A stretch of DNA of 64,000 nucleotides from Scenedesmus sp. PABB004 (taxonomy: Eukaryota), in the NCBI GenBank assembly GCA_014905635.1, contig JABVCE010000012.1, positions 186,001 to 250,000 of the forward strand. The letters run 5' to 3'. The translations under genes were made by a program, and so were the position numbers. Positions within the stretch are counted from its first letter, which is position 1; each line of letters begins with the position of its first letter. Positions 3,305 to 63,398 of this stretch are shown piece after piece. The notes below the pieces were generated by a model. The model did no database searches. It was given only the letters and a program-made list of their open reading frames with translations, and was not told the origin of the DNA.

Positions 3305-4281
3305 TCAGGGCCCGTCGTCCGGCGACGCGGGCTGCGCCCGGATCCACGCGGCCACGGCCGCGTGGCCGTTGTCTGCCGCCGCGCGATCGCACTTGGCGCG
3401 CCGCCACGGGCAGCCGTTGGCGCGCAGCCAGCGCAGCGCGTCCAGCTGCCCCTCCGCAGCCGCCCAGTAGCACGCCCCCTCGTCCCACGGCGCGGGCGGC
3501 GACTGGGCGCGCGCCCAGCGCAGCATCTCCAGGTCGCCGCGCGCCGCAGCATTGCTGCACACCGCAATGTCGCCCAGGGAAGCGGCGCCTGCGACCGCGC
3601 CCAGCGTAGCACCGCCAGCTGCCCGCCCTTGGTTGCTGCCTCGCACACAAAGTGCAGGCACAGCCCCTGGTCGCGCGCCCACTCCAGCACGGCGATCTGG
3701 CCGGCGCGTGCTGCTTCCCGGCCCACGCCCCAGTCCATGTCGCAGCCGGCGCCACGCAGCCAGGCCAGGCCCGCCACGTCGCCGCACTCTGCACGCCGCA
3801 CCACCAGCCACCACTGCAGAATCCAATCACTGCGCAACTCCCGCCAGGCCTCCTGCACCGCCTCCAGCGGCAGCTCGGGGCAGGTCAGAGAGATGGGGCC
3901 GCGGAAGCGCTCGCGCGCCGCCTTGCAGACCAGCCTGGCGGTCCACGCCTGCAGGGCCGGCGGCAGGAAGCTCAGGACGTGGAGCACGAGGGCCTCCGGC
4001 AGCTCCGGCAGCAGGCTGCGGGCGGCGGCGTGGGCAGGGCGGCCGGGGCGTGAGGGGCGGCGGTGGGGCGGCGCGCAGCGCCTGCTGCAGCCGGCTGAGG
4101 CTCGCTGCTCAGCGCCCGCCTGGCCAGCAGCACCAGTCATGAGGAAGGGGCAGCAGCGGCTGCGCGCCCACCTCGGCGCCGCCTCGTCGCCGCCGGGCGC
4201 CTCGCCCGCCGCTGCTGCCGCAGCCGCCCGCGCGCGCGTGGTCGGCCCGGCGCGCCGCTTGCCCGCCGGCGCAGCAGACAT
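3305..4281 (-). pseudogene. F-box/ankyrin-like repeat cassette gene, copy 1 (apparent 1-nt frameshift)
   Basis: MSAAPAGKRRAGPTTRAR, intron, LPELPEALVLHVLSFLPPALQAWTARLVCKAARERF, repeats GQIAVLEWARDQG / GDLEMLRWARAQ / GQLDALRWLRANGCPW. Frame changes near 3575 (one G missing in tgg ggc); could be an assembly error. Confidence 0.75.
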
Positions 4282-5145
4282 GGTGCCAACTAACAGCCTG
4301 CGGGCCAGCAGGGAGCAGCAGGCGGCGCCGGCGGCGGGCGCGAGCGTGCGCGGGCGGCGTGAGCGCAGCAGCAGCAGCAGCAGCGAGCGGCGCCCGTCCC
4401 CGCCCCCTGGCGCAGCGGCGCAGCGGCGGCCTGCCAGCGGCGCCCGGCGCGCGCAGGCCCGGCGGCCCACGCCACACGCCCGCCCGCCGCGCACCGCCGG
4501 CGCCCCTGCCGCCTGCAGCGGGCGCCGCGCAGCGCGGCCCGCCCGCCCGCTGCTGCCCTCCCCGCCTGCCCGCGCACCCGGCTCGCCTGGCGCTGCGTGG
4601 GCGGGTCGGCCCGGCCGTCAGACGCCCGACGCGCGTCGCCCCGCCTGGCCAGGGGCGCGGCGCGGGCGGGGGCGGGCGCTGGGCGGCGGCGGCGCGGCGC
4701 GTGCGGGAGCTGTGTGGGCCGCGGCCGGCGCTCGTGCTTGTGCGCGTGCGTGTGCGGCAGGGGCGCTGAGGGCGGCGGCTGTGGGCGGCGGGGCGGCGCG
4801 CGCGCGGGGCCTCCTCGGCGGCACGGCGCGGGCAGCCGGCCGGGCGGCGCCTGCGCCCTGGGCCCTGCACCGCGCCGCCCGCCGCGTTGCCGCTGCCGGG
4901 CGCGCGCGCAGCGCGGCGCGGCGGAGAGGCTGCCGCCGTCATCGCTCGGCGGCGCCAGACGCGGTCGGCCGGTTGCCAGCACGCGCTGCCGCTCGCTCGC
5001 GCCCGGCGCCGCCAACTCTCCTGGCTGCGTGCACGCAAGCACTCAAAATCCTTCACCCGCCGCCGTGGCACGGCCAGCCGCCAGTCGTGCGCGGCCAGTG
5101 CCTGGCGCAGCACGCCGGCCGCTGCAGTCTCGCGGCGTCACCCCT
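4282..5145 (-). repeat. Conserved upstream region of cassette copy 1 plus inter-copy spacer
   Basis: Contains the anchor gccctgggccctgcaccg (~4855-4872) found upstream of all copies. 4930-5145 matches 25375-25600 in reverse complement. Confidence 0.85.
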
Positions 5146-5175: not shown

Positions 5176-6427
5176 CTAGTAGTAGTCCACATACTCCTCC
5201 TCATCCGAGTCATCATCCTCTACACCGCCGTCGTCCGCCGCCGCGGGCTGCGCCCGGACCCACGCGGCCACGGCCGCGTGGCCGTTGTCTGCCGCCACGC
5301 CCTCGCACATGCTGCGCACCCACGGGCAGCCGTTGGCGCGCAGCCAGCGCAGCGCCTCCAGCTGCCCGCACTGAGCCGCCGCGCAGCAGGTGTCTTCGTC
5401 CCACGGCGCCGGCTCGGCCTCGGCACGCGCCCAGCGCAGCATCTCCAGGTCGCCGCGCTCTGCAGCCTGCCGATACATGCTGCCTCCCCACCGCAGCGGC
5501 GGCGTCTGCGCGCGCGCCCAGCGCAGCACCGCCAGCTGCCCGCCCGCGGCTGCGCCGCTGCACACGCCCCTCAGGTCCAGCCCCTGGTCGCGCACCCACG
5601 CCAGCACGGCGAGCTGGCCGGCGCGTGCTGCTGCGTGGCCCACGTCCCCCAGGCGCAGCCCCTCGCCGCGCGCCCACTCCAGCACGGCGATGTGGCCGTG
5701 CTTTGCTGCTGCGTACCCCACGTCCCACAGGTTCAGCCCCTCACCACGCGCCCACTCCAGCACGGCGACCTGGCCGGCCGAGGCTGCTGCGTGCTCCACG
5801 TCACTCAGGCCCAGCCCCTCGCCGCGCGCCCACTCCAGCACGGCGACCTGGCCGGCGTGCGCTGCTCCTGAGCCCACCCCGCCCATGCTGCAGTCGGCGG
5901 CGCGCAGCCAGGCCAGGCCCGCCACGTCGCCGCACGCCGCGCGCGCCTCGGCCAGCTGCCGCTGCTGCATCCAATCACTGCGCAACTCCTGCCACGCCTC
6001 CTGCACCGCCGCCAGCGGCAGCTCGGGGCAGCGCAGCGAGATGGAGCCGCGGAAGCGCTCGCGCGCCGCCCTGCAGACCAGCTTGGCGGTCCACGCCTGC
6101 AGTGCCGGCGGCAGGAAGCTCAGGACGTGGAGCACGAGGGCCTCGGACAGGTCTGGCTGCGGGCTGTTGGCGGCGGCGTGGGCAGGGCGGCCGGGGCGCG
6201 AGGGGCGGCGGTGAGGCGGGCGCGCGGCGCCTGCTGCAGCCGGCTGAGGCTCGCTGCGCAGCGCCCGCTGGCCAGGCAGCGCCACCCAGGGGGAAGGGGC
6301 AGCAGCGGCAGCGCGCCCACCTCGGCGCCGCCTCGTCGCCGCCGGGCGCCTCGCCCGCCGCCGCCGCCGCAGCCGCCCGCGCGCGCATGGTCGGCCCGGC
6401 GCGCCGCTTGCCCGCCGGCGAAGACAT
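5176..6427 (-). CDS. F-box/ankyrin-like repeat cassette gene, copy 2 (intact; four tandem 25-aa repeats; acidic tail)
   Basis: Exon 1 MSSPAGKRRAGPTMRAR...EAAP, donor gtgggc. Exon 2 is open to the stop at 5176, with 75-bp units (AA.aGq.AVLeWargeGL.L) and tail EDDDSDEEEYVDYY. Confidence 0.85.
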
Positions 6428-7135
6428 GGCGGCGTCTGGGGGCCTGCGGGCCAGCAGGGAGCAGCAGGGGGGGCGCCGGCAGCGGGCGTGAGCGCGCAGG
6501 CGGCGTGAGCGCAGCAGCAGCAGCGCACGGCGCCCGCCCCCGCCCCGGCGCGGCGGCGCGGCGGTGTGCCTGCCAGCGGCGACCGGGGCGCGCAGTCCCG
6601 GCATCACACGCGACAAGCCCGCCCGCCGCGCACCGCCGGCGCCCCCGCCGCCCGCAGCGGGCGCCGCGCAGCGCGGCCCGCCCGCCGCTGCTGCCTGCTC
6701 ACTGCCCGCCCGCGCGCTGCCGGGCTCGCCTGGCGCTGCGTGGGCGGGTCAGCCCGGCCGTCAGGCGCCGGCGGCCGAAGCGCGTCGCCCCGCCTGGCCA
6801 GGGGCGCGCCGTGGGCGGGGCGGGCGCCGCAGTTCAAACGCTGCGCGGCGGCGCGTGTGCGTGCGGGAGCTGTGGGCCGCGGCGCTCGTGCGTGTGGCAG
6901 GGGCGCTGAGGGCGGCGGCTGTGGGCGGCGGGGCGGCGCGCGCGGGGGCCTCCTCAGCGGCGGCGCGGGCAGCCGGCCGGGCGGCGCCTGCGCCCTGGGC
7001 CCTGCACCGCGCCGCCCTCGCGCCGCCGCTGCCGGGCACGCGCAGCGCGGCACGGCGCAGAGGCTGCCAATCACGCTGCGGCGGCAGGGCGTGCGTGCGG
7101 CCCAGCACGGGCGTGCGGCCAGCCGGTTGCCAGAG
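6428..7135 (-). repeat. Conserved upstream region of cassette copy 2
   Basis: Colinear with 4282-4980, including gggtcagcccggccgtcagg, tgtgggcggcggggcggcgcg, gccctgggccctgcaccg and gccggttgccag. Confidence 0.85.
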
Positions 7136-15802: not shown

Positions 15803-16767
15803 TCACTCCGGCTGCGCCCGGATCCACGCGACCACGGCCTCGTGGCCCTCGCCTGCCAAGAGCCGGCACCAGTCACGCCGCCACGGGCAGCCGTTGGCGC
15901 GCAGCCAGCGCAGCGTGTCCAGCTGCCCGTGCGCAACGGCCGCCTCGCACGTCTCCTCGTCCCACGGCGCGGGCTCGGCCTGGGGGCGCGCCCAGCGCAG
16001 CATGTTGAGGTCGCCGCGACGTGCAGCGTAGTAGCACACCCCACACCATGAGCCGCCCCACGGCAGCGGCGGCGTCTGCGCGCGCGCCCAGCGCAGCACC
16101 GCCATCTGCCCGCCCTTGGCTGCTGCAACGCACACCACCTCCAGGTCCAGCCCCTGGTCGCGTGCCCACTCCAGCACGGCGAGGTGGCCGTGCTCCGCTG
16201 CTGCCCAGGCCACGCCGCCCATGTCGCAGCTGCGCCGCCAGCGGCGGCGCGCAGCCAGGCCAGGCCCGCCACGTCGCCGCACGCCGCGCGCGCCTCGGCC
16301 AGCTGCCGCTGCCGCTCCCCATCACCCTGCACCGCCCGCCACGCCTCCTGCACCGCCGCCAGCGGCAGTTCGGGGCAGGTCAGAGAGATGGGGCCGCGGA
16401 AGCGCTCGCGCGCCGCCTTGCAGACCAGCTTGGCGGTCCACGCCCGCAGGGCCGGCGGCAGGAAGCTCAGGACGTGGAGCACGAGGGCCTCGGGCAGCTC
16501 CGGCAGCGGGCTGCGGGCGGCGGCGTGGGCAGGGCGGCCGGGGTGTGAGGGGCGGCGGTGAGGCGGCGCGCAGCGCCTGCTGCAGCTGGCTGAGGCCCAG
16601 TGCTCAGCGCCCGCTTGGCCAGCAGCACCAGTCAGGCGGCGCCAGCAGCAGCAGCGCGCCCACCTCGGCGCCGCCTCGCCGCCGCCGGGCGCCTCGCCCG
16701 CCGCTGCTGCAGTCGCCACTGCGCTCATGGTCGGCCTGGCGGGCCGCTTGTCCTCTGGCGACGACAT
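15803..16767 (-). pseudogene. F-box/ankyrin-like cassette gene, copy 3 (frameshifted)
   Basis: MSSPEDKRPARPT..., F-box-like LPELPEALVLHVLSFL. A small insertion near 16230-16245 shifts the frame before CDMGGVAW. The C-terminal repeats are in ORF 15803..16282. Confidence 0.8.
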
Positions 16768-17345
16768 GGCGCCGGCTGGGGGTGTGCAGACCAGCAGGGA
16801 GCAGCAGGCGGCGCCGGCAGCGGGCACGAGCGCGCGGGCGGCGTGAGCGCAGCAGCAGCAGCGCACGGCGCCCGGCCCCGCCCCGGCGCGGCGGCACGGC
16901 GGCGGGCCTGACAGCGGCGCCCGGGGCGCGCAGGACCGGCGGAGCACGCCACACGCCCGCCACCCGCGCACCGCCGCCGCCCGCAGCGGGCGCCGCGCAG
17001 CGCGGCCCGCCCGCCGCTGCCCTCCCCGCCTGCCCGCGCACCCGGCTCGCCTGGCGCTGCGCTGGGCGGGTCAGCCCGGCCTTCAGGCACCCGCAGGTCC
17101 ACGCCCCGCCTGGCCAGGGGCGCGCCGCGGGCGGGGGCGGGCGCTGGGCGGCGGCAGCGCGCGTGCGTGCTCGAGCTGTGGGCCGCGGCCGGCTCTCGTG
17201 CGTGTGCGTGTGTGGCAGGGAGGCGCTGAGGGCGGCGGCTGTGGGCAGCGGGCCGGCGCGTGGGGGTCCTCCTGCTCGGTGGCGGCGCGGGCAGCCGGCC
17301 GGGCAGCGCCTGCGCCCTGGGCCCTGCACCGCCGCTGCCGGGCGG
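16768..17345 (-). repeat. Conserved upstream region of cassette copy 3
   Basis: Same ordered motifs; anchor at ~17313-17331. Confidence 0.85.
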
Positions 17346-17574: not shown

Positions 17575-18597
17575 TCACTCCCAGCCCCCCTCCTCATCCT
17601 TTTCCTCCTCCTCGGGGCCGTCGTCCGCCGCCACGGGCTGCGCCCGGATCCACGCGACCACGGCCTCGTGGCCGTTGTCTGCCGCCACGCGCTCGCACTT
17701 GACGCGCGCCCACGGGCAGCCGTTGGCGCGCAGCCAGCGCAGCGCCTCCAGCTGCCCGCACTGAGCCGCCGCCCAGCAGGTGTCTTCGTCCCACGGCGCC
17801 GGCTCGGCCTCGGCACGCGCCCAGCGCAGCATCTCCAGGTCGCCGCGCTGCGCAGCCTGCCAGCACACACTGCCTCCCCACCGCAGCGGCGGCGCCTGCG
17901 CGCGCGCCCAGCGCAGCGCCGGCAGCTGCCCGCCGTCGGCTGCGCCGCCGCACACGCCCCACAGGTCCAGCCCCTGGTCGCGCGCCCACTCCAGCACGGC
18001 GAGCTGGCCGTGCGCCGCTGCTGTCCGGCACACGCCGTCCACCTCGAACACGCGGCCCATGTCGCAGCCAGCAGTGCGCAGCCAGGCCAGCCCCGCCACG
18101 TCGCCGCACGCGCGCGTGCCTTGGCGAGCTTGCACAGCTGCTTCAACCCATCACCCTGCACCGCCTGCCACGCCTCCTGCACCGCCGCCAGCGGCAGCTC
18201 GGGGCAACGCAGCGAGACGACCGTGGCGCCCCGGAAGCGCTCGCGCGCCGCCTTGCAGACCAGCCTGGCGGTCCACGCTTGCAGGGCCGGCGGCAGGAAG
18301 CTCAGGGCGTGTAGCACGAGCGGCTCGGGCAGCTCCGGCAGCGGGCTGCGGGCGGTGCTGGCGGGGCGAGCGGGTGCGGGGCGGCGGTGAGGCGGCGCGC
18401 GGCGCCTGCTGCAGCTGGCTGAGGCTCAGCGCTCAGCGCCCGCCTGGCCAGCAGCACCAGCAGCAGCCGCACGCCCACCTCGGCGTTGCCTCCGCGCTGC
18501 CGGGCGCCTCGCCTGCGGCGGCGGGCACCGCTGCCGCAGCCGCCCGCGCGCGCGTGGTCGGCCCGGCGCGCCGCTTGCCCGCCGGCGCAGCAGACAT
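17575..18597 (-). pseudogene. F-box/ankyrin-like cassette gene, copy 4 (apparent 1-nt frameshift)
   Basis: Frame changes at ~18110 (KLAKAR/ACGDVAG, one base short of consensus). Otherwise complete, with acidic tail EEEEKDEEGGWE. Confidence 0.75.
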
Positions 18598-19230
18598 GGC
18601 GGGTGCTGGGGGCCTGCGGGCCAGCAGGGAGCAGCAGGCAGGGCGCCGGCAGCGGGCGTGAGCGCGGGGGCGGCGTGAGCGCAGCAGCAGCAGCGCGCGG
18701 CGCCCGCCCCCGCCCCGGCGCGGCGGCACGGCGGCGGGCCTGACAGCGGCGCCCGGGGCGCGCAGGCCCGGCGGAGCACGGCACACGCCCGCCACCCGCG
18801 CACCGCCGCCGCCCGCAGCGGGCGCCGCGCAGCGCGGCCCGCCCGCCGCTGCTGCCCCCCCGCCCGCCCGCGCGCGCGGCTCGCCTGGCGCTGCGCTGGG
18901 CGGGTCAGCCCGGCCTTCAGGCACCCGCAGGTCCACGCCCCGCCTGGCCAGAGGCGCGGGCGGCGGCAGGCGCTGGGCGGAGGCGGCGCGGTGCGTGCGG
19001 ACCTGTGGGCCGCGGCCGGCGCTTAGTGTGCGTGCGTGTGTGGCAGGGAGGCGCTGAGGGCGGCGGCGGCTGTGGGCGGCGGGGCGGCGCGCGCGGGGGC
19101 CTCCTCGGCGGCGGCGCGGGCAGCCGGCGGCGCCTGCGCCCTGGGCCCTGCACCGCTGCTCGGGCGCGGCGCGGCACGCAGAGGGAGTGCGCGCGGCCCG
19201 CCCAGGCGCGCTGGTCAGCCGGTTGCACGC
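18598..19230 (-). repeat. Conserved upstream region of cassette copy 4
   Basis: Anchor at ~19138-19155; gccggttgc motif at ~19218. Confidence 0.85.
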
Positions 19231-23467: not shown

Positions 23468-24089
23468 TCCCGGCAGCGGCGGCAGGTGGCGGCAGACGGC
23501 GGCGCAGGGCCCGGGGCGCAGGCGCCGCCCGGCCGGCTGCCCGCGCCGCCGCCGAGGAGGCCCCCCGCGCGCCGCCCCGCCGCCCACAGCCGCCGCCCCC
23601 AGCGCCTCCCTGCTGCACGCACACACGAGCGCCGGCCGCGCCCACACAGCCCCCCCCCCCCCCCCCCCCCCACGCACACGCGCCGCTGCGCAGCGTTTGA
23701 ATTGCGGTGCCCGCCCCCGCCTGCGGCGCGCCCCTGGCCAGGCGGGGCGACTCGCGTCGGGCGCCTGACGGCCGAGCCGACCCGTCCAGCGCAGCGCCAG
23801 GCGAGCCACGTGCGCGGGCGGGCGGGGAGCAGGCAGCAGCGGGCGGGCGGACCGCGCTGCGGGCGGCGGGGGCTGCGGCGGTGCGCGGCGGGCGGGCGTG
23901 TGGCGTGGGCCGCCGGGCCTGCGCGCCCTGGGCGCCGCTGGCGGGCCCGCTGCCTCGCCGCCGCGCCGGGGCGGGGGCGGGTGCCGCGCGCTGCTGCTGC
24001 TGCTGCGCTCACGCCGCCCCCGCGCTCACGCCCGCTGCCGGCGCCCTGCCTGCTGCTCCCTGCTGGCCTGCAGGCCCCCAGCACCCGCC
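23468..24089 (+). repeat. Conserved upstream region of cassette copy 5, with probable 5'UTR intron 23801-24073
   Basis: ccag|gcgagc donor, gctcac branch-like motif and ctgcag| acceptor 16 nt before the ATG; the same elements are seen in the other copies. Confidence 0.75.
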
Positions 24090-25229
24090 ATGTCTGCTGC
24101 GCCGGCGGGCAAGCGGCGCGCCGGGCCGACCACGCGCGCGTGGGCGGCTGCACTGGCGGCAGCGGGCGAAGCGCCCGGCGGCCAGGATGAGGTGGCGAGG
24201 TGGGCCCGCTGCCGCTGCTGCCCCTTCCCCCTGGCTGCTGCCGCTGGCCAGGCGGGCGCTGAGCACTGGGCCTCAGCCAGCTGCAGCAGGCGCTGCGCGC
24301 CGCCTCACCGCCGCCCCTCACGCCCCGGCCGCCCTGCCCACGCCGCCGCCCGCAGCCCGCTGCCGGAGCTGCCCGAGGCCCTCGTGCTCCACGTCCTGAG
24401 CTTCCTGCCGCCGTCCCTGCAGGCGTGGACCGCCAGGCAGGTCTGCAAGGCGGCGCACGAGCGCTTCCGCGGCGCCAGGCGCGTCTCGCTGCGTTGCCCC
24501 GAGCTGTCGCTGGCGGCGGTGCAGGAGGCCTGGCGGGCGGTGGGGGGCCACGAGCGGCAGCAGAGTCGGCTGGCCAACGTGCGCGCGGCGTGCGGTGACG
24601 TGGCGGGCCTGGCCTGGCTGCGCGGCGCCGGCTGCGACATGGACAGCGTGTTTCAGCATGACAGCGTGTGCAGGACAGCAATGCGCGCTGGCCAGCTAGC
24701 CGTGCTGGAGTGGGCGCGCGGCGAGGGGCTGGACCTGCGGGACGTTGTCGCGGAAGCAGCGCGCCACGGCCAGCTCGCCGTGCTGGAGTGGGCGCGCGAC
24801 CAAGGGCTGGACCTGGGGTGGGCATGTGTTGGAGCAGCCCTGCGCGGGCAGCTGGCGGTGCTGCGCTGGGCGCGCGCGCAGGCGCCGCCGTTGCCGTGGG
24901 GCGACACGTGCCTCTGCGCTGTGGAGCGCGGCGACCTGGAGATGCTGCGCTGGGCGTGTGCCCAGGCCGAGCCCGCGCCGTGGAACTGGCTGTCGTGCTT
25001 CGCGGCGGCTGAGTACGGGCACCTGGAGGCGCTGCGCTGGCTGCGCGCCGACGGTTGCGAGTGGTGGCGCGGCAAGTGCGAGCGCGCGGCGGCACGTTCC
25101 GGCCACGCAGCCGTGGTCGCGTGGATCTGGGCGCAGCCCGTGTCCGCGGACGACGGCCCGGACTGGGACTCTGACGATGAGGAGCACGAGGTGTGGCACG
25201 AGGGCTTTCAGGAGGGGGCTGAGGAGTGA
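24090..25229 (+). CDS. F-box/ankyrin-like cassette gene, copy 5 (intact; probable intron 24200-24355)
   Basis: Continuous frame with F-box-like segment, two LEWAR repeats, LRWAR, GDLEMLRW and GHLEALRWLRADGC, and an acidic tail. Confidence 0.85.
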   Translation: MSAAPAGKRRAGPTTRAWAAALAAAGEAPGGQDEVARWARCRCCPFPLAAAAGQAGAEHWASASCSRRCAPPHRRPSRPGRPAHAAARSPLPELPEALVLHVLSFLPPSLQAWTARQVCKAAHERFRGARRVSLRCPELSLAAVQEAWRAVGGHERQQSRLANVRAACGDVAGLAWLRGAGCDMDSVFQHDSVCRTAMRAGQLAVLEWARGEGLDLRDVVAEAARHGQLAVLEWARDQGLDLGWACVGAALRGQLAVLRWARAQAPPLPWGDTCLCAVERGDLEMLRWACAQAEPAPWNWLSCFAAAEYGHLEALRWLRADGCEWWRGKCERAAARSGHAAVVAWIWAQPVSADDGPDWDSDDEEHEVWHEGFQEGAEE

Positions 25230-25374: not shown

Positions 25375-25725
25375 GTTGACGCCGATTGACTGCGGTCGGC
25401 TGCGTGCTGTGCCCAGGCTGTCAACTGGCCGCGCACGACCGGCGGCTGGACGTGCCACGGTGGCGGGTGAGGGCTGTTGAGTGCACGCACGCAGCGAGGA
25501 GAGTTGGCGGCGGCGAGCGCGAGCGGCAGTGCGTGCTGGCAACCGGCCGACTGGCGCGCGGGGGACGACGGCGGCGGCCTCTGTGCCGCGCCGCGCACGC
25601 TCGGCAGCGGTGGCGCGAGGGCGGCGGCGCAGGGCCCGGGCGCAGGCGCCGCCCGGCCGCCTGCCCGCGCCGCCGCCGAGGAGGGCCCGCGCGCGCGCCG
25701 GCCCACCGCCCACAGCCGCCGGCCT
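25375..25725 (+). repeat. Spacer plus truncated extra cassette head
   Basis: Reverse-complement match to ~4775-5145, ending after cgcccacagccgcc. Confidence 0.8.
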
Positions 25726-25823
25726 CGCACTCTCGCCGGCCCCGGCCGCGGGCCAGAGCGCGCCAAAGCGCCGCTGCTGCCGGGCGCGGCGCGCCCACTC
25801 CTGCAGCGCGAGCGACAGGGCGG

Positions 25824-33544: not shown

Positions 33545-34146
33545 CCCGGCAGTGGCGGCAGGTGGCGGCAGACGGCGGCGCAGGGCCCGGGGCGCAGGCG
33601 CCGCCCGGCCGGCTGCCCGCGCCGCCGCCGAGGAGGCCCCCGCGCGCGCCGCCCCGCCGCCCACAGCCGCCACGCCGCCTTCAGCGCCTCCCACACACAC
33701 ACACGCGCCGGCCGCGGCCCACAGCTCCCGCACGCACACGCGCCGCCGCCGCCGCACAGCGCCCGCCCCCGCCCGCGGCGCGCCCCCCCTGGCCAGGCGG
33801 GGCAACGCGTGTCGGGCGCCTGACGGCCGGAACGGTCCGCCCAGCGCAGCACCAGGCGAGCCGTGCGCGCGGGCAGGCGGTGAGCAGGCAGCAGCGGGCC
33901 GCGCTGGCGCGGCGCCCACTGCTGGCGGCGGGGGCACCGGCGGTGCGCGGGTGGCGGGCGTACGGCGTGGGCCGCCGGGCATGCACGCCCCGGGCGCCGC
34001 TGGCAGGCCCGCCGCCGCGCCGCCACGCCGAAGCGGGGGCGGGCGCCGCGCGCTGCTGCTGCTCCGCTCACGCCGCCCGCGCGCTTGCGCCCGCCGCCGG
34101 CGCCGCCTGCTGCTCCCTTCTGGCACGCAGGCCTCCAGAACCCGCC
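33545..34146 (+). repeat. Conserved upstream region of cassette copy 6
   Basis: Anchor gcgcagggcccggggcgcaggcgccgcccggccggctgcccgcg at ~33578. Confidence 0.85.
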
Positions 34147-35151
34147 ATGTCTTCGCCGGCGGGCAAGCGGCGCGCCGGGCCGACCATGCGCGCGGGGGCG
34201 GCTGCACTGGCGGCGGCGGCGGGCGAGGCGCCCGGCGGCGCGGAGGCGGCGCTGAGGTGGGCCCGCAATTGTTGCTGCCCCCCCTCCCCCCCCCCCCCCC
34301 CAACGGCTGGTGCTGCTTGGCCAGGCGGGCGACGAGCACCGAGCCACGGCCAGCTGGGAGCAGGCGCCGCGCGCCGCCTCACCGCCGCCCCTGCGCGCCC
34401 ACCTCACCGCCGCCCCTGCGCGCCCGCCTCACCGCCGCCCCTGCTCGCCCGCCCGCCCGCTCCTGCGCCGCCAGCAGCCTGTGGGCGGAGCTGCCCGAGC
34501 CGCTCGTGCTACACGCCCTGAGCTATCTGCCGCCAGCCCTGCAGGCGTGGACCGCCAAGCTGGTCTGCAAGGCGGCGCGCGAGCGCTTCCGCGGCGCCAC
34601 AGCCGTCTCGCTGCGCTGCCCCGAGCTGCCGCTGGCGGCGGTGCAGGAGGCGTGGCGGGCGGTGCAGGGTGACGGGTGGCAGCAGAGGGGGCTGGCCAAC
34701 GCGCGCGCGGCGTGCGGCGACGTGGCGGGGCTGGCCTGGCTGCGCGGCGCCGGCTGCCGCACGGCCAGCGTGGTCCGGCCAGCAGCGCGCGCTGGCCACC
34801 TCGCCGTGCTGGAGTGGGCGCGCGGCGAGCGGCTGGGCCTGCGGGACGTGTGCCGAGGAGCAGCGGAGGGCGGGCAGATCGCCGTGGTGGAGTGGGCGCG
34901 GTCACAGAGGCCGCCGCTGCCCTGGGACAACTTTGTGTGCCTCTGCGCTGCGCGGCGCGGCAACCTGGAGATGCTGCGCTGGGCGCGCGCCCAGGACAGG
35001 CCCGCGCCGTGGCACTGGACGGCGTGCACGGCGGCGGCTGAGCGCGGGGACCTGGACGTGCTGCGCTGGCTGGCGCTCGAATGCTTTGTGCGCGGCGGAC
35101 TTCGCCGGCCACGAGGCCGTCGTCGCGTGGATTCGGGCGCAGCCTGCGTGA
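34147..35151 (+). pseudogene. F-box/ankyrin-like cassette gene, copy 6 (frameshifting deletion in last repeat)
   Basis: RANGCP segment missing at ~35070 (ctggctggc junction); the terminal GHEAVVAWIRAQPA* is in another frame. Confidence 0.8.
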
Positions 35152-35199
35152 GCTGCCGCGCCGCTTGGAGGCAACACGTTCTCCGCCGCGCCGCGCCCC

Positions 35200-35325
35200 C
35201 GCCCGGCAGCGGCAGGCGGGCGGCGGCGGTGCAGGGCGCAGGGCGCACGCGCCGCCTGGCTGCCCGCCGCCGCCGACGAGGCCCTGGCGCGCGCCGGCCC
35301 GGCCGCCCACACAGCCGCCCTCGCA
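35200..35325 (+). repeat. Truncated, degenerate extra cassette head
   Basis: cccggcagcggc...ggcggtgcagggcgcagggcgca...ggctgcccgccgccgccg...cacagccgccctc. Confidence 0.7.
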
Positions 35326-37561: not shown

Positions 37562-38617
37562 TCAGCCCCGGTCGCCCGCCGCAGGCTGCGCCCGGATCCA
37601 CGCGGCCACGGCCTCGTGCCCTTCGCCTGCCGCCGCGCGCGCGCACCAGTCGCGCTCCCACGGGCAGCCGTTGGCGCGCAGCCAGCGCAGCGCCTCTAGC
37701 TGCCCGCTCCCAGCCGCCACGTAGCACGACACCTCGCTCCACGGCGCGGGCTCGGCCTGGGCGCGCGCCCAGCGCAGCATCTCCAGGTCGCCGCGCGCTG
37801 CAGCCCAATAGCACACATCGCCGCCGCCCCACGGCAGCGGCGGCGTCTGCGCGCGCGCCCAGTGCAGCACCGCCAGCTGCCGGCTAAACGCTGCTCTCAC
37901 ACACACGTCCCCCAGGTCCAGCCCCTCGTCGCGCGCCCACTCCAACACGGCGACCTGGCCGTGCTCTGTTGCAACCCAGACAACGAACCGCAGGTCCAGC
38001 CCCTCGCCGCGCGCCCACTCCAGCACGGCGAGTTGGCCGTGCTGCACTGCTGCCGCGACCACGCTGATGGCCATGTCGCACCCGGCGCGGTGCAGCCAGG
38101 CCAGCCCCACCATGTCGATGCACGCCGCGCGCGCCTCGGGCGAGCTTGCACTGCCGCTCCCTATCACCCTGCACCGCCCGCCACGCCTCCTGCACCGCCG
38201 CCAGCGGCAGCTCGGGGCAGCGCAGCGAGACACGCCTGGCGCCGCAGAAGCGCTCGCGCGCCGCCTTGCAGACCAGCCTGGCGGTCCACGCCCGCAGGGC
38301 CGGCGGCAGGAAGCTCAGGACGTGTAGCACGAGCGGCTCGGGCAGCTCCGGCAGCGGGCTGCTGGCGACGTGGGCGGAGCGCGGCGAGTGGGCGGTGGTG
38401 AGGCAGCGCGCGGCGCCTGCTGCAGCCGGCTGAGGCTTACTGCGCAGCACCTGCCTGGCCAGGCAGAGCCACCCAGGGGGAAGGGGCAGCAGCAGCAGCG
38501 CGCCCACCTTGGCGCTGCCTCGTCGCCACCGGGTGCCTCGCACCACGCCGCCAGCGCAGCCGCCCGCGCGCGCGAGATCGGCCCGGCGCGCCGCTTGCCC
38601 GCCGGCGCGGAGAGCAT
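37562..38617 (-). pseudogene. F-box/ankyrin-like cassette gene, copy 7 (apparent +1 frameshift)
   Basis: Extra C at ~38139 (ctc gcc c gag); otherwise complete. Confidence 0.75.
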
Positions 38618-39258
38618 GGCGCCACCTGGGTGTCTGCGGGCCAGCAGGCAGCAGCAGGCGGGGCACCGGCAGCGGTCGTGAGCGCGCGGGTGGCGTGAGC
38701 ACAGCAGCAGCAGCAGCGCGCGGCGCCTGCCCCCCCCCCCCCCCGCGCGGCGGCGCGGCGGCGGGCCTGCCAGCGGCGCCCGGGGCGCGCAGTCCCGGCA
38801 GCCCACGCCACACGCCCGCCCGCCACACACCGCCGGTGCCCCCGCCGCCCCCAGCGGGCGCTGCGCTGCGCAGCGCGGCCTGCCGCCGCTGCCCTCCCCG
38901 CCCGCCCGCCCGCGCACGGCTCGCCTGGCGGTGCGCTGGGCGGGTCAGCCCGGCCGTCAGGCGCCCGCAGGTCCGCGCCTCACCTGGCCAGGGGCGCGCC
39001 GCGGGCGGGGGCGGGCGCTGGGCGGCAGCAGTGCGTGTGCGTGCGGGAGCGGTGGGCCGCGGCCGGCGCTCGTGCGTGTGTGCGTGTGGCAGGAGGGCTG
39101 AGGGCCGCGGCTGTGGGCTGCGGGGCGGGTCGCGCGCGGGGGCCTCCTCGGCGGCGGCGCGGGCAGCCGGCCAGGCGGCGCCTGCGCCCTGGGCCCTGCA
39201 CCGCCGGCGGGCGTGGTGCGCGCGCTGCGCCGTCGCGCGGTCAGGCCGGTTGCCAGCG
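38618..39258 (-). repeat. Conserved upstream region of cassette copy 7
   Basis: Anchor at ~39185-39203; ggccggttgccagc at ~39244. Confidence 0.85.
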
Positions 39259-46565: not shown

Positions 46566-46674
46566 GCGGCGCGCCGCGGCGCGGCGAGCGACGCGAGCGC
46601 GAGCGAGCGGCGCGAGAGCGAGCCACGGCCGGCCCGGCCTGCAACCGCGGCGTGCGGCGCCGCACCGCGCCCGC

Positions 46675-47293
46675 GCCCGGCAGCGGCGACACGAGGAGCG
46701 GCGGTGCAGGGCCCAGGGCGCAGGCGCCGCCCGGCCGGCTGCCCGCGCCGCCGCCGAGCAGGAGGCCCCCACGACCCGCCCCGCCGCCCACAGCCGCCGC
46801 CCTCAGCGCCTCCCTGCCACACACGCACACACGCACGAGCGCCGGCCGCGGCCCACAGCTCCCGCACGCACACGCGCCGCTGCTGTTCGAATTGCAGCGC
46901 CCGCCCCCGCCCGCGGCGCGCCCCTGGCCAGGCGGGGCGACGCGCGTCGGGCGCCTGACGGCCGGGCTGACCCGCCCAGCGCAGCACCAGGCGAGCCGCG
47001 CGCGCGGGCGGGCGGGGAGGGCAGCGGCGGCAGGCAGGCAGCGCTGCTGCGCGGCGCCCGCTGCGGGCGGCGGGGGCACCGGCGGTGCGCGGGTGGCGGG
47101 CGTGTGGCGTGTACCGCCGCGCCTGCGCGCCCCGGGCGCCGCTGGCAGGCCCGCCGCCGCGCCGCCGCGCCACGGGGCGGGGGCGGGCGCCGCGTGCTGC
47201 TGCTGCCGCTGCGCTCACGCCGCCCGCGTGCTCGCGCCCGCTGCCGGCGGCGCCTGCTGCTCCCTGCTGGCCCGCAGGCTCCCAGGCGGCGCC
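46675..47293 (+). repeat. Conserved upstream region of cassette copy 8
   Basis: Anchor cggtgcagggcccagggcgcaggcg at ~46702. Confidence 0.85.
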
Positions 47294-48174
47294 ATGTCCT
47301 CGCCGGCGGGCAAGCGGCGCGCCGGGCCGACCATGCGCGCGCGGGCGGCAGCGGCAGCGGCGGCGGGCGAGGCGCCCGGCGGCGACGAGGCGGCGCCGAG
47401 GTGGGCGCTGCTGCTGCTGCTGCCCCCCCCCCCCCACACACACACAAACGGCTGGTGCTGCTTGGCTGCCACTTCACCGCCGCGCCCGCCCTGCCCCGCG
47501 CGCGTCGCCGCCAGCAGCCCGCTGCCGGAGCTGCCTATGCCCCTCGTGCTCCACGTCCTGAGCTTCCTGCCGCCGGCCCTGCGGGCGTGGGCCGCCAAGC
47601 TGGTCTGCAAGGCGGCACGCGAGCGCTTCTGCGGTGCCACAGACGTCTCGCTGCGCTGCCCCGAGCTGCCGCTGGCGGCGGTGCAGGAGGCCTGGCGGGC
47701 GGTGCAGGGTGACGGGTGGGAGCAGCAGTCTAAGCTCGCCAAGGCGCGCGCGGCGTGCATCGACATGGTGGGGCTGGCCTGGCTGCGCGGCGCTGGCTGC
47801 TGGATGGGCGGTGTGGGCTGGGAAGCAGCACAGCACGGCCAGCTCGCCGTGCTGGAGTGGGCACGCGACCAGGGGCTGGGCCTGGAGCTCGTGTGCGCTG
47901 GAGCGTGCTGGAGGAGGCGTGCGGTGTCGCGGCTGAGCGGGGGCACCTGGAGGCGCTGCGCTGGCTGCGCGCCAACGGCTGCCCTTGGGCGCGCGGCGAA
48001 TGTGAGAGCGTGGCGGCAGGCGAAGGGCACGAGGCCGTGGCCGCGTGGATCCGGGCGCAGCCTGCGGCGCCGGACGATGAGCCTGTCTGGGACTCGGATG
48101 AGGAAGAGGAGGAGGGCTGGAGCTCGGACGAGGGGGAGAACGAGGAGGGGGAGGAGGGGGAGCATGCTGCGTGA
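47294..48174 (+). pseudogene. F-box/ankyrin-like cassette gene, copy 8 (two repeats deleted, frameshifted)
   Basis: The junction at ~47905 joins LELVCAG to the last repeat out of frame; long acidic tail. Confidence 0.8.
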
Positions 48175-61675: not shown

Positions 61676-62714
61676 TCACGCGGGCTGCGCCCGCATCCAC
61701 GCGGCCACGGCCTCGTGGCCCTCGGCTTCCGCCCACCGCTCGCACTCGGCGCGCCACCACGGGCAGCCGTTGGCGCGCAGCCAGCGCAGCGCCTCCAGCT
61801 GCCCGCTATGAGCCGCCGCCCAGCACGTGTCCTCATCCCACGGCGCGGGCTTGTCCTGGGCGCGCAGCCAGCGCAGCATCTCCAGGTCACTGTGCTGTGC
61901 AGCGATGGTGCACACATCGCCGCCCCACGGCAGCGGCGGCGTCTGCGCGCGTGCCCAGCGCAGCACGGCCATCTGCCCGCCCTCGGCTGCTGAGCTGCAC
62001 ACATCGCGCAGGCTCAGCCTCTTGCCCCGCGCCCACTCCAGCACGGTGAGGTGGCCGGCGCGCGCTGCTGTGCAGCACACAAACCGCAGGTCCAGCCCCT
62101 CGCCGCGCGCCCACTCCAGCACGGCGAGCTGGCCGTGCCCCGCTGCTGCGGAGCACACGTCACTGTCTATCTCGCAGCCGGCACCGCGCAGCCAGGCCAG
62201 CCCCGGCACGTCGCCGCACGCCGCGCGCGCCCCGGCCAGCCGCCGCTGCTGCTCCTGCTGCCCCCACCGGTCACCTTGCACCGCCCGCCAGGCCTCCTGC
62301 ACCGCCGCCAGCGACAGCTCGGGGCAACGCAGCGAGACGCGCCTGGCGCCGCGGAAGCGCTCGTGCGCCGCCTTGCAGACCTGCCTGGCGGTCCACGCCT
62401 GCAGGGCCGGAGGCAGGAAGCTCAGGACGTGGAGCACGAGGGGCTCGGACAGCTCTGGCGGGCTGCGGGTGACACGGGGCGTGCGCGCAGGGCGGCGGTG
62501 AGGGCGCGGCGCCTGCTGCAGCTGGCTGTGACTCGCTGCGCAGCGCCCGCCTGGCCAGGCAGCGCCGCCCAGGGGGGAGGGCGGGCGTGAGCAGCAGCAG
62601 CGCCCACCTCGGCGCCGCCTCGTCGCCGCCGGATGCCTCGCACGCCGCCGCCAGCGCAACCGCCCGCGCGCGCGTGGTCGGCCCGGCGCGCCGCTTGCCC
62701 GCCGGCGAAGACAT
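61676..62714 (-). CDS. F-box/ankyrin-like cassette gene, copy 9 (intact)
   Basis: Exon 1 MSSPAGKRRAGPTTRAR; exon 2 open from SPPELSEPLVLHVLSFL to WMRAQPA*. Confidence 0.85.
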
Positions 62715-63325
62715 GGCGGGTTCTGGGGGCCTGCGTGCCAGAAGGGAACAGGCTGCGGCGCCGGCGGCGGGCGCGAGCGCGCGGGCGGCGTGAGCGCAGC
62801 AGCAGCAGCGCGCGGCGCCCGCCCCCCCCCCCCCCAGCGCGGCGGCACGGCGGCGGGCCTGCCAGCGGCGCCCGGGGCGCGCAGGCCCGGCGGGTCACGC
62901 CACACGCCCGCCCACCGCGCACCGCCGGCGCCCCCGCCGCGCACAGCAGCGGGCGCTGCGCAGCGCGGCCCGCCCGCCGCTGTTGCCTCCTCCCCGCCCG
63001 CCCGCGCGCGGCTCGCCTGGCGGTGCGCTGGGCGGGTCAGTCCGGCCGTCAGGCGCCCCCAGGTCCGCGCCCCGCCTTGCCGCGTGGGCGCCGCGTTCGA
63101 ACGCTGGGCGGCGGCAGCGGCGCAGTGCGTGCGGGAGCTGCGGGCCGCGGCCGGCGCTCGTGTGCGTGCGTGTGCGGCAGGGAGGCGCTGAGGGCGGCGG
63201 CTGGGCGGAGGGGCGGCGCGCGCGGGGGGCCTCCTCGGCGGCACGGCGTGGGCAGCCGGCCGGGCGGCGCCCTGGGCCCTGGGCCCTGCACCGCGCCGCC
63301 CGCGTGTTGCCGCTGCCGGGCGCGG
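62715..63325 (-). repeat. Conserved upstream region of cassette copy 9
   Basis: Anchor at ~63275-63293. Confidence 0.85.
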
Positions 63326-63398
63326 GCGACGTGCCGCCCTCGTGCCGCCGCCCGCGGTCTGCGTTTTGTTGCGCGCGAGCGAGCGACAGCATGTCACC

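Follow-up and report, generated by a model that had tools for sequence, protein, structure and literature searches.

We describe a family of genes encoding F-box-like, ankyrin-repeat proteins in a 64-kb window of the genome of Scenedesmus sp. PABB004 (contig JABVCE010000012.1, positions 186,001 to 250,000; coordinates below are counted from the first nucleotide of this window), in which a small set of regularly spaced repeat positions is under diversifying selection. The focal copy, c2, carries an open reading frame (ORF) of 450 codons at 5176-6528 on the minus strand, and tblastn searches with the product of this ORF matched eight further loci in the window, giving nine paralogous units in total (c1 to c9). 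Every unit codes for an F-box-like segment at the N-terminus and, after it, six to nine repeats of 26-29 residues. Altogether, 58 repeats were found in the nine copies (56 plus two N-caps), and these fall into six types: an N-cap (type N); the 26-residue type A, which occurs one to four times; types B, C, and D; and a C-terminal cap, type E. The family itself, its shortened ankyrin architecture, and the periodic, site-specific excess of replacements are all solid. An initial annotation of the stretch at 5176-6140, which is contained in the ORF, had described an almost fixed repeat framework carrying a few highly variable residues and had read it as a diversifying repertoire of ubiquitin-ligase target receptors. 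All of the strings it quoted from c2 were recovered from the ORF, and the others proved genuine as well, being encoded by paralogues c1, c3, c5, c6, c7, and c9 in the window.

Repeats were numbered by placing the invariant G that precedes helix 2 at position 11 and the invariant W at position 18. By this numbering, positions 1, 2, 5, 6, 9, and 10 were highly variable, while positions 3, 4, 7, 8, and 11-20 were nearly fixed. Shannon entropy amounted to 1.5-2.7 bits at positions 1, 2, 5, 6, and 9 in most repeat types; type D had lower values at positions 1 and 6, and type E at position 5. High entropy at position 10 was limited to types D and E, and positions 7 and 11-20 gave 0-1.3 bits. The same profile was obtained with 27 repeats from seven paralogues located outside the window, and a single column contained up to 7 different residues among the 9 copies. 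Nucleotide differences agreed with the entropy values and with the fixed framework initially described, i.e., across 233 pairs of same-type repeats, a mean of 11.6 of 30 nt differed in positions 1-10 vs. 2.6 of 30 nt in positions 11-20. Within c2, type-A repeats 1 and 2 differed at 13 of the 21 nt in seven variable codons and at 5 of 57 nt elsewhere, and repeats 1 and 3 at 12 of 21 and 4 of 57 nt, respectively; the remaining four pairs of type-A repeats were less extreme (6-9 of 21 variable vs. 6-10 of 57 elsewhere).

The variable codons were also distinctive in composition. Their A+T content was 29.4% (846 bases) vs. 23.6% for the framework (2034 bases; odds ratio 1.35, p = 0.0014), so that the A/T enrichment noted initially is real, if modest. 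The aromatic residues noted at these positions were likewise borne out: W, Y, and F accounted for 29 of 282 residues (10.3%; 44 of 282 when H is included), as compared to 1.8% expected from the base composition of flanking non-coding DNA. By the same yardstick, proline was depleted (0.4% vs. 21% expected) and E plus D were enriched (18% vs. 3%). The variable sites are filtered for helix-compatible surface residues at the same time as they are pushed to differ.

The number of replacements at the variable positions exceeds neutral expectation. Using the Nei-Gojobori method (NG86) on repeats of types N, B, C, D, and E, the nonsynonymous distance (dN) was 0.845 at variable positions, while the framework gave a synonymous distance (dS) of 0.185 and a dN of 0.119. 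As neutral yardsticks, the upstream segment and the intron of the nine units gave mean pairwise Jukes-Cantor distances of 0.12 and 0.205, respectively. Considering the dN of the variable positions against framework dS and these additional yardsticks, the variable positions change four to seven times faster than neutral. We then estimated omega (dN/dS) with our own implementation of a Muse-Gaut codon model (MG94xF3x4) with fixed site classes and shared branch lengths. The input comprised 146 columns (55 F-box, 67 framework, and 24 variable), to which types B, C, D, and E supplied 24 variable and 56 framework codon columns. Omega was 4.05 for the variable class, 0.31 for the framework, and 0.28 for the F-box, with a likelihood ratio test (LRT) statistic of 81.3 against omega = 1 for the variable class. 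Estimated position by position, omega was 3.6 at position 1, 4.8 at position 2, 6.2 at position 5, 4.5 at position 6, 4.6 at position 9, and 2.2 at position 10, and it was <1 at the other fourteen repeat positions.

These estimates were stable to the way in which sites, trees, and copies were chosen. Variable-class omega was 5.3 with class-specific codon frequencies, 4.1 with a star tree, and 3.1 when the site set was defined solely from type-A repeats, which had been kept out of the test itself. As a check of the estimator, true omega values of 0.3, 1, and 4 were returned as 0.29, 0.98, and 3.94. Post hoc choice of sites was rejected as the source of the signal, since picking the six most variable positions from each of 200 neutral simulations never gave an omega above 1.63 or an LRT statistic above 18.8. 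Misalignment near linkers of variable length was rejected because positions bracketed by invariant residues still gave an omega of 3.6, as was relaxation in pseudogenes, since the three intact copies alone gave 8.6. The diversifying selection that the initial annotation had supposed was thus recovered in every variant of the test (omega ~3-8.6); a dN/dS of 1 or less at the variable residues was not found, nor was variation spread evenly along the gene. We conclude that the variable positions are under diversifying selection.

The repeats belong to the ankyrin superfamily. Pfam Ank_4 matched c2 with 24.1 bits for the whole ORF and 26.3 bits for the exon-2 protein (cut-off 22.7), ankyrin was the only Pfam family reported for the whole c2 protein, and Ank_4 was matched by all 46 of the aligned relatives. 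A single-sequence search of the c2 repeats alone against the PDB gave chance-level matches only (E >= 0.17). The family profile, by comparison, matched 275 PDB sequences at E <= 0.001, among them designed ankyrin repeat proteins (DARPins), Espin, and Ankyrin-1 (E 5.5e-46 to 4e-28), a DARPin being matched at E 5.5e-46. An AlphaFold2 model of c2, built with the 46-sequence alignment, had a mean predicted local distance difference test (pLDDT) score of 86.5, with values of 92-98 in the repeats, and showed paired helices throughout the repeats in the form of a stacked helix-turn-helix solenoid. Foldseek returned 54 matches to this model at E <= 0.001; those listed were nearly all ankyrin domains or DARPins, besides two designed pentatricopeptide repeat chains. 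Their template modeling scores were only 0.25-0.46, which are low because the curvature differs. The canonical 33-residue ankyrin unit with its beta-turn and TPLH motif was not found, the units here being 26-29 residues long. In the profile alignment to the DARPin, the six beta-turn residues had no counterpart, and TPLH stood opposite non-conserved or different residues. The family is therefore an atypical, shortened variant of the ankyrin repeat. In c2 (minus strand), the N-cap repeat is located at 5884..5961; it is followed by four tandem 26-residue type-A repeats at 5806-5883, 5728-5805, 5650-5727, and 5572-5649, and by types B (5494-5571), C (5407-5484), D (5320-5397), and E (5236-5313). 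All other copies carry one or two type-A repeats.

The AlphaFold2 model places helix 1 at repeat positions 3-10 and helix 2 at positions 13-21. Variable positions 2, 5, 6, 9, and 10 are spaced at i, i+3, i+4, i+7, as residues on a single helical face would be, position 1 belongs to the turn preceding helix 1, and the small conserved residues at positions 3, 4, 7, 8, and 11 fall on the opposite, packing face. The model thus shows the variable sites where the initial annotation had predicted them, i.e., in the turn ahead of the first ankyrin helix and along one of its faces. First helices line the ankyrin groove, which is the usual binding surface of ankyrin proteins. The annotation had also called the pattern DARPin-like, and this comparison stood in part. 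DARPins share with the family a fixed ankyrin framework bearing a few diversified surface positions per repeat. Taking the DARPin library positions to be 2, 3, 5, 13, 14, and 33, three of the six variable positions (1, 9, and 10) align with DARPin positions 5, 13, and 14, which are presumably among those randomized. Family positions 2, 5, and 6 align instead with T6, H9, and L10, and library positions 2, 3, and 33 have no counterpart in repeats of 26-29 residues. In further contrast to DARPins, the six-residue beta-turn that carries the other library positions is missing from the family and TPLH is not kept; relative to the canonical TPLH-L motif, the H and the second L are replaced by two variable positions.

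The N-terminal segment is likely an F-box, judging from profile similarity. In c2, the F-box-like segment is located at 6049..6153 (minus strand), where Pfam F-box aligned over residues 2-36 of a 64-residue piece encoded at 5965-6156. When the corresponding 64-residue pieces of the nine copies were searched against Pfam, only F-box and F-box-like were matched, the former by all nine copies (best E 2.6e-4), although below the curated cut-off, and the latter by eight of nine (best E 2.8e-4). A profile of the N-termini gave six matches in the PDB (E 0.035-0.07), all of which were F-box proteins aligned on their F-boxes. Among the 46 aligned relatives, 13 matched F-box-like and 9 matched F-box at E <= 0.01, and the significant F-box domains of distant relatives sit at the same N-terminal position. 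Since these matches are weak but exclusive, the assignment is likely even though it is sub-threshold, and to this extent the initial reading was supported.

The G+C content of the window is ~80% throughout, and the genome of Scenedesmus sp. PABB004 is reported to comprise 39.8 Mb in 77 contigs, with 78.5% G+C, 7,092 genes, and 1.31% repeats (portions seen of PMC12571836). A blastn self-comparison of the window showed a repeated unit of ~1.9 kb that extends from just inside the coding 3' end to ~640 nt upstream of the start codon, with c2 at 5196-7068 (minus strand). The other units are c1 (3312..4934, minus), with a 1-nt frame shift within the type-B linker; c3 (15810..17332, minus), with a frame shift in the N-cap region; c4 (17589..19156, minus), in which 1 nt has been lost between F-box and repeats; c5 (23469..25193, plus); c6 (33545..35148, plus), whose last repeats are affected by a deletion and a change of frame; c7 (37565..39204, minus), in which 1 nt has been inserted between F-box and repeats; c8 (46657..48114, plus), in which about two internal repeats are deleted and the frame changes; and c9 (61679..63327, minus). 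The exon-2 frame is uninterrupted in c2, c5, and c9. The nearest relative of c2 is the 3' half of c4, with 90% identity over 450 nt in that half only. Units occur on both strands, interspersed among unrelated cellular genes, in a genome with a reported repeat content of 1.3% (same portions of PMC12571836). Single units could have spread locally by tandem duplication plus inversion or by a transposition-like process.

Beyond the window, at least seven further paralogues occur in Scenedesmus sp. PABB004, and the best database relatives were ten proteins of this alga (45-70% identity), most of them on one contig. Relatives outside Scenedesmus sp. PABB004 were at most 42% identical; those named include Capsaspora, stramenopiles, an oomycete, and Pandoravirus celtis, with no other green alga among the names, and a foreign origin is therefore conceivable. 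A more distant paralogue on another contig of the same species, P0006, has 45% identity and eight repeats. In P0006, the positions that vary in the cluster are mostly A or G, which is nearer to the outcome of GC pressure alone, and it may represent a slower-evolving or decaying branch of the family. Three of eleven public PABB004 gene models contain c6, c7, and c8 (matched by eye), each fused to neighboring genes. In general, the public models fuse family members to neighboring genes or splice the ankyrin domain out, the genes involved including those for an rRNA-processing protein, a chorismate mutase, a glucanase-like protein, and a thioredoxin-like protein. Annotation of the region is unreliable because all frames stay open at 80% G+C.

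Alignment of all nine units revealed a common layout, in which a conserved ATG opens a short exon 1 that is separated by a GT...AG intron from a long exon 2. Splicing was predicted from this alignment, in agreement with public gene models of paralogues. In c2 (all features on the minus strand), predicted exon 1 is located at 6321..6427 (35 codons plus 2 nt), its ATG and GT donor being conserved in nine of nine units; the predicted 157-nt GT...AG intron is at 6164..6320; and exon 2, at 5176..6163 with a stop codon at 5176-5178, encodes the F-box-like segment, nine helical-hairpin repeats, and an acidic tail. The tail, encoded in open frame at 5179..5235, contains aromatic residues. Like the 3' ends of c4, c5, and c8, it is strongly acidic with scattered W, Y, and F, and among copies the tails vary in sequence and in length, from zero to ~40 residues. 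Exon 1 of c2 and its counterparts encode a conserved basic, alanine-rich peptide that could be a nuclear or organellar targeting signal.

Upstream of c2, the blastn self-comparison, in which homology reached as far as 7010-7068, and the nine-unit alignment delimited a further segment (promoter or 5' untranslated region [UTR]) at 6428..7068 on the minus strand. About 640 nt of upstream DNA is duplicated with every unit, e.g., at 4495-4934 for c1 and 23469-24100 for c5. This segment diverges less than the intron (0.12 vs. 0.205) and to much the same degree as the F-box coding block (Jukes-Cantor distance 0.138). It was taken to be non-coding because its indels are not multiples of three, and the units probably share it as a promoter or 5' UTR that constraint or conversion has preserved. 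Isolated upstream-like fragments occur at 25377-25726 and 35180-35322, just downstream of c5 and c6, in the place expected of a next tandem unit; they may be remnants of lost copies. Homopolymer runs of C, ~15-25 nt in length, occur in otherwise conserved non-coding DNA upstream of c5 (near 23700) and in the intron of c6 (near 34350), and these could be real or artifacts of long-read sequencing.

Our favored explanation, which we hold to be fairly probable, is that the genes form a birth-and-death family of substrate receptors of the SKP1-cullin-F-box (SCF) type, with diversifying selection acting on the binding face. Through its F-box, the protein would attach to SKP1 of an SCF ubiquitin ligase. 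The repeats are predicted to stack such that the outward faces of the first helices, together with the preceding turns, form a continuous variable stripe (positions 1, 2, 5, 6, 9, and 10) that would bind the target, while positions 3, 4, 7, 8, and 11-20 would pack the scaffold and be held by purifying selection. Both the binding of SKP1 and the binding of targets by the stripe are deduced from sequence. Diversification would then proceed by three routes: positively selected replacements on the stripe, changes in the number of type-A repeats from one to four, and gene birth and death, which would leave copies with broken frames, as in six of nine here. A constant scaffold with fast-evolving surface positions is the pattern expected of receptors engaged in an arms race.

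Several observations weigh against this explanation. The frame is disrupted in the assembly in six of nine copies (c1, c3, c4, c6, c7, and c8), so that many copies may give no full protein. The disruptions may be true lesions or indel errors of long-read assembly, and part of the repertoire envisaged initially may therefore consist of pseudogenes or assembly errors. The match of c2 to Pfam F-box was sub-threshold (13.4 bits, cut-off 20.5, E 0.079). The modeled helices of this segment (residues 9-16, 21-31, and 33-38) lie in a block of low pLDDT (52-73), and alignment of the N-terminal profile to one F-box-bearing relative by hhalign was uninformative (18 aligned columns, probability 4.3%). Our own codon model assumes a single tree, yet the copies look mosaic, as with the 90% identity of c2 and c4 confined to the 3' half. 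Codon pairs encoding the same amino acid differed in 21.7% of cases at variable positions vs. 11.2% at framework positions, an excess that may stem from multiple hits or from a locally somewhat elevated rate of mutation. Finally, exposure and burial were judged from helix periodicity.

Two alternatives concern the origin of the variation. If the copies were neutral duplicates in decay, hypervariability could arise from relaxed constraint, with GC-biased gene conversion or base composition inflating dN/dS; the number of frame-broken copies and the ~80% G+C of the genome are in keeping with this, as is the finding that A/T-majority columns of non-coding DNA diverge 1.9 times faster than G/C-majority columns (0.212 vs. 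0.112), itself consistent with a strong pressure towards G+C in this genome. However, decay predicts omega near 1 everywhere, rather than ~0.3 in the framework, ~4 at variable positions, and an even higher value in intact copies, and the neutral simulations fell well short of what was observed. Base composition was rejected as the cause, since the A/T excess (29% vs. 24%) predicts neutral divergences of ~0.141 vs. 0.136, a negligible difference beside the observed proportion of nonsynonymous differences (pN) of 0.51. GC-biased fixation was likewise rejected; under it, A/T should become scarcer and codons for G, A, R, and P more frequent, whereas the variable sites are A/T-richer and nearly free of proline. 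Considering also that the variation tracks helix periodicity, decay is very improbable. The second alternative is that a mechanism, instead of selection on point mutations, generates the variation, either short-tract gene conversion that draws on a pool of paralogous repeats and produces a mosaic of cassettes, or locally targeted mutation. Variable codon pairs differ at two nucleotides in 33.6% of cases and at three in 16.4%; the near-identical framework of >50 repeats would favor ectopic exchange, and the mosaic appearance of the copies and the roughly twofold excess of silent differences at variable codons are also in keeping with such a mechanism. However, the closest variable segments were found in orthologous repeats of other copies and not in other repeat types, and no donor cassettes were identified among the 51 repeats compared within the window (N-caps left out). 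Conversion, moreover, only reshuffles variants, whose diversity must still be created and kept, and a mutational process gives no reason for an i, i+3, i+4, i+7 pattern or for the avoidance of proline. We therefore regard a purely mechanistic origin as unlikely.

Two further alternatives concern what the proteins do and where they came from. The proteins could be stand-alone ankyrin binders (e.g., organelle-targeted alpha-solenoid factors that read their targets by a code of one element per repeat, or inhibitors or decoys) in which the likeness to F-boxes is incidental. In addition to the sub-threshold match of c2, the basic, alanine-rich product of exon 1 would resemble an algal targeting peptide, and the portions seen of one source describe, among candidate organellar solenoid factors, a tandem cluster of seven Chlamydomonas ankyrin or pseudo-ankyrin paralogues without Pfam ankyrin hits (PMC13126933). 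It is difficult, however, to reconcile an incidental likeness with N-terminal pieces that matched no Pfam families other than F-box and F-box-like, with a PDB search in which six of six matches were F-box proteins, with the significant F-boxes of distant relatives at the same position, or with purifying selection on this segment (omega 0.28). The high proportion of E and D (18%) at variable positions would also be unfavorable for binding nucleic acids. Stand-alone binders thus seem unlikely, though they retain some weight. A giant-virus or selfish origin, in which an endogenized host-manipulation family spreads locally in intragenomic conflict rather than defense, would suit the presence of Pandoravirus celtis and the absence of other green algae among the named relatives, as well as the occurrence of 1.9-kb units in both orientations between unrelated cellular genes. 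Large ankyrin expansions are also carried by giant viruses, e.g., 148 copies in Bodo saltans virus (portions seen of PMC5871332). Against this, the units share the 80% G+C of the host, have an intron, and are neighbored by ordinary cellular genes such as those for the rRNA-processing protein and chorismate mutase. A scan of viral contigs with the c2 protein, which detects close relatives only, gave 5 pattern matches, of which none was confirmed. We consider such an origin quite unlikely.

As a putative family of SCF-type receptors, the algal genes have their closest parallel in the F-box and MATH-BTB adapters of Caenorhabditis and plants, which show lineage-specific expansions and strong positive selection at substrate-binding sites (Thomas, 2006, as cited in the portions seen of PMC5392922). 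It has been suggested that these adapters recognize proteins of pathogens and serve in immunity to intracellular infection, and in C. elegans such genes are induced by infection with virus and microsporidia (same portions of PMC5392922). Shared features are a conserved cullin-side domain, a selected substrate-binding domain, and expansion within a lineage; as in these adaptively evolving adapters, omega in the algal family is >1 in the putative substrate-binding domain while the putative docking domain is conserved, and the expansion is lineage-specific, clustered, and accompanied by broken copies. The nematode adapters differ in recognizing substrates by an F-box-associated domain (DUF38) or MATH, as opposed to a shortened ankyrin solenoid, and the known adapter families are large expansions, whereas the algal sample consists of nine copies in one window of a unicellular green alga. 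The principle is therefore already known, and the algal F-box-ankyrin case can be placed beside these adapter families; among the published titles and abstracts searched, site-specific positive selection in an algal F-box-ankyrin family was not reported.

Other systems share parts of this arrangement. FEM1B and FEM1C, which serve cullin-RING ligase 2 (CRL2), and the ASB proteins of CRL5 use ankyrin repeats as the degron-binding module of a cullin ligase, the role predicted here, and FEM1B and FEM1C chains were among the PDB matches of the family profile (E ~1e-13 to 1e-11). In FEM1 and ASB proteins, however, docking occurs via a C-terminal VHL or SOCS box, in place of an N-terminal, F-box-like segment, and both are conserved single genes that are not known to form fast-evolving clusters. 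The same domain pair, with the short repeat type, occurs in F-box-ankyrin proteins of protists, viruses, and intracellular bacteria, e.g., the Capsaspora F-box domain-containing protein CAOG_07861, Pandoravirus celtis cds_744, poxvirus ANK/PRANC proteins, in which the F-box is C-terminal, and Legionella AnkB. A consensus of 46 sequences has undetermined positions at the same places, flanking the conserved C and AA pair. These relatives outside the alga are no more than 42% identical, and the viral and bacterial proteins manipulate a host, whereas the algal ones are host genes. Site-specific positive selection in an F-box-ankyrin family of this kind was likewise not encountered among the titles and abstracts searched. 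Bodo saltans virus likewise shows ankyrin gene duplications, variable repeat number, and disrupted copies; its "genomic accordion" of recent tandem and dispersed duplications was read as an arms race (PMC5871332, in the portions seen). That family differs in being viral, AT-rich, and present in 148 copies, and an F-box is not described for it in the same portions.

A more specific version of our explanation is that the family constitutes a germline library of natural, DARPin-like F-box-ankyrin binders whose helix-1 stripe would be under ever-renewed selection for recognizing proteins of viruses, parasites, or selfish elements, which would then be sent to the proteasome. We offer this tentatively and give it a rather low probability, though an immune role is a plausible hypothesis. 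If true, it would mean that innate immunity in a unicellular relative of plants includes a ubiquitin-based repertoire acting inside the cell, with point substitutions, gains and losses of repeats, and the turnover of genes as its sources of diversity. Very little is known of how green microalgae recognize intracellular enemies. Here, in a compact genome, the rate of evolution of a predicted binding face is about fourfold that of silent sites. Since this fast-evolving face is carried by one scaffold and encoded in a gene cluster, the family provides a concrete set of candidate receptors. It also suggests that the principle of DARPin engineering was reached by nature on a shorter repeat without the beta-turn, which could inform the design of binders. 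If the F-box link holds, unicellular algae would join nematodes and plants as organisms to which the idea of adaptive ubiquitin-ligase adapters applies, though with another kind of recognition module.

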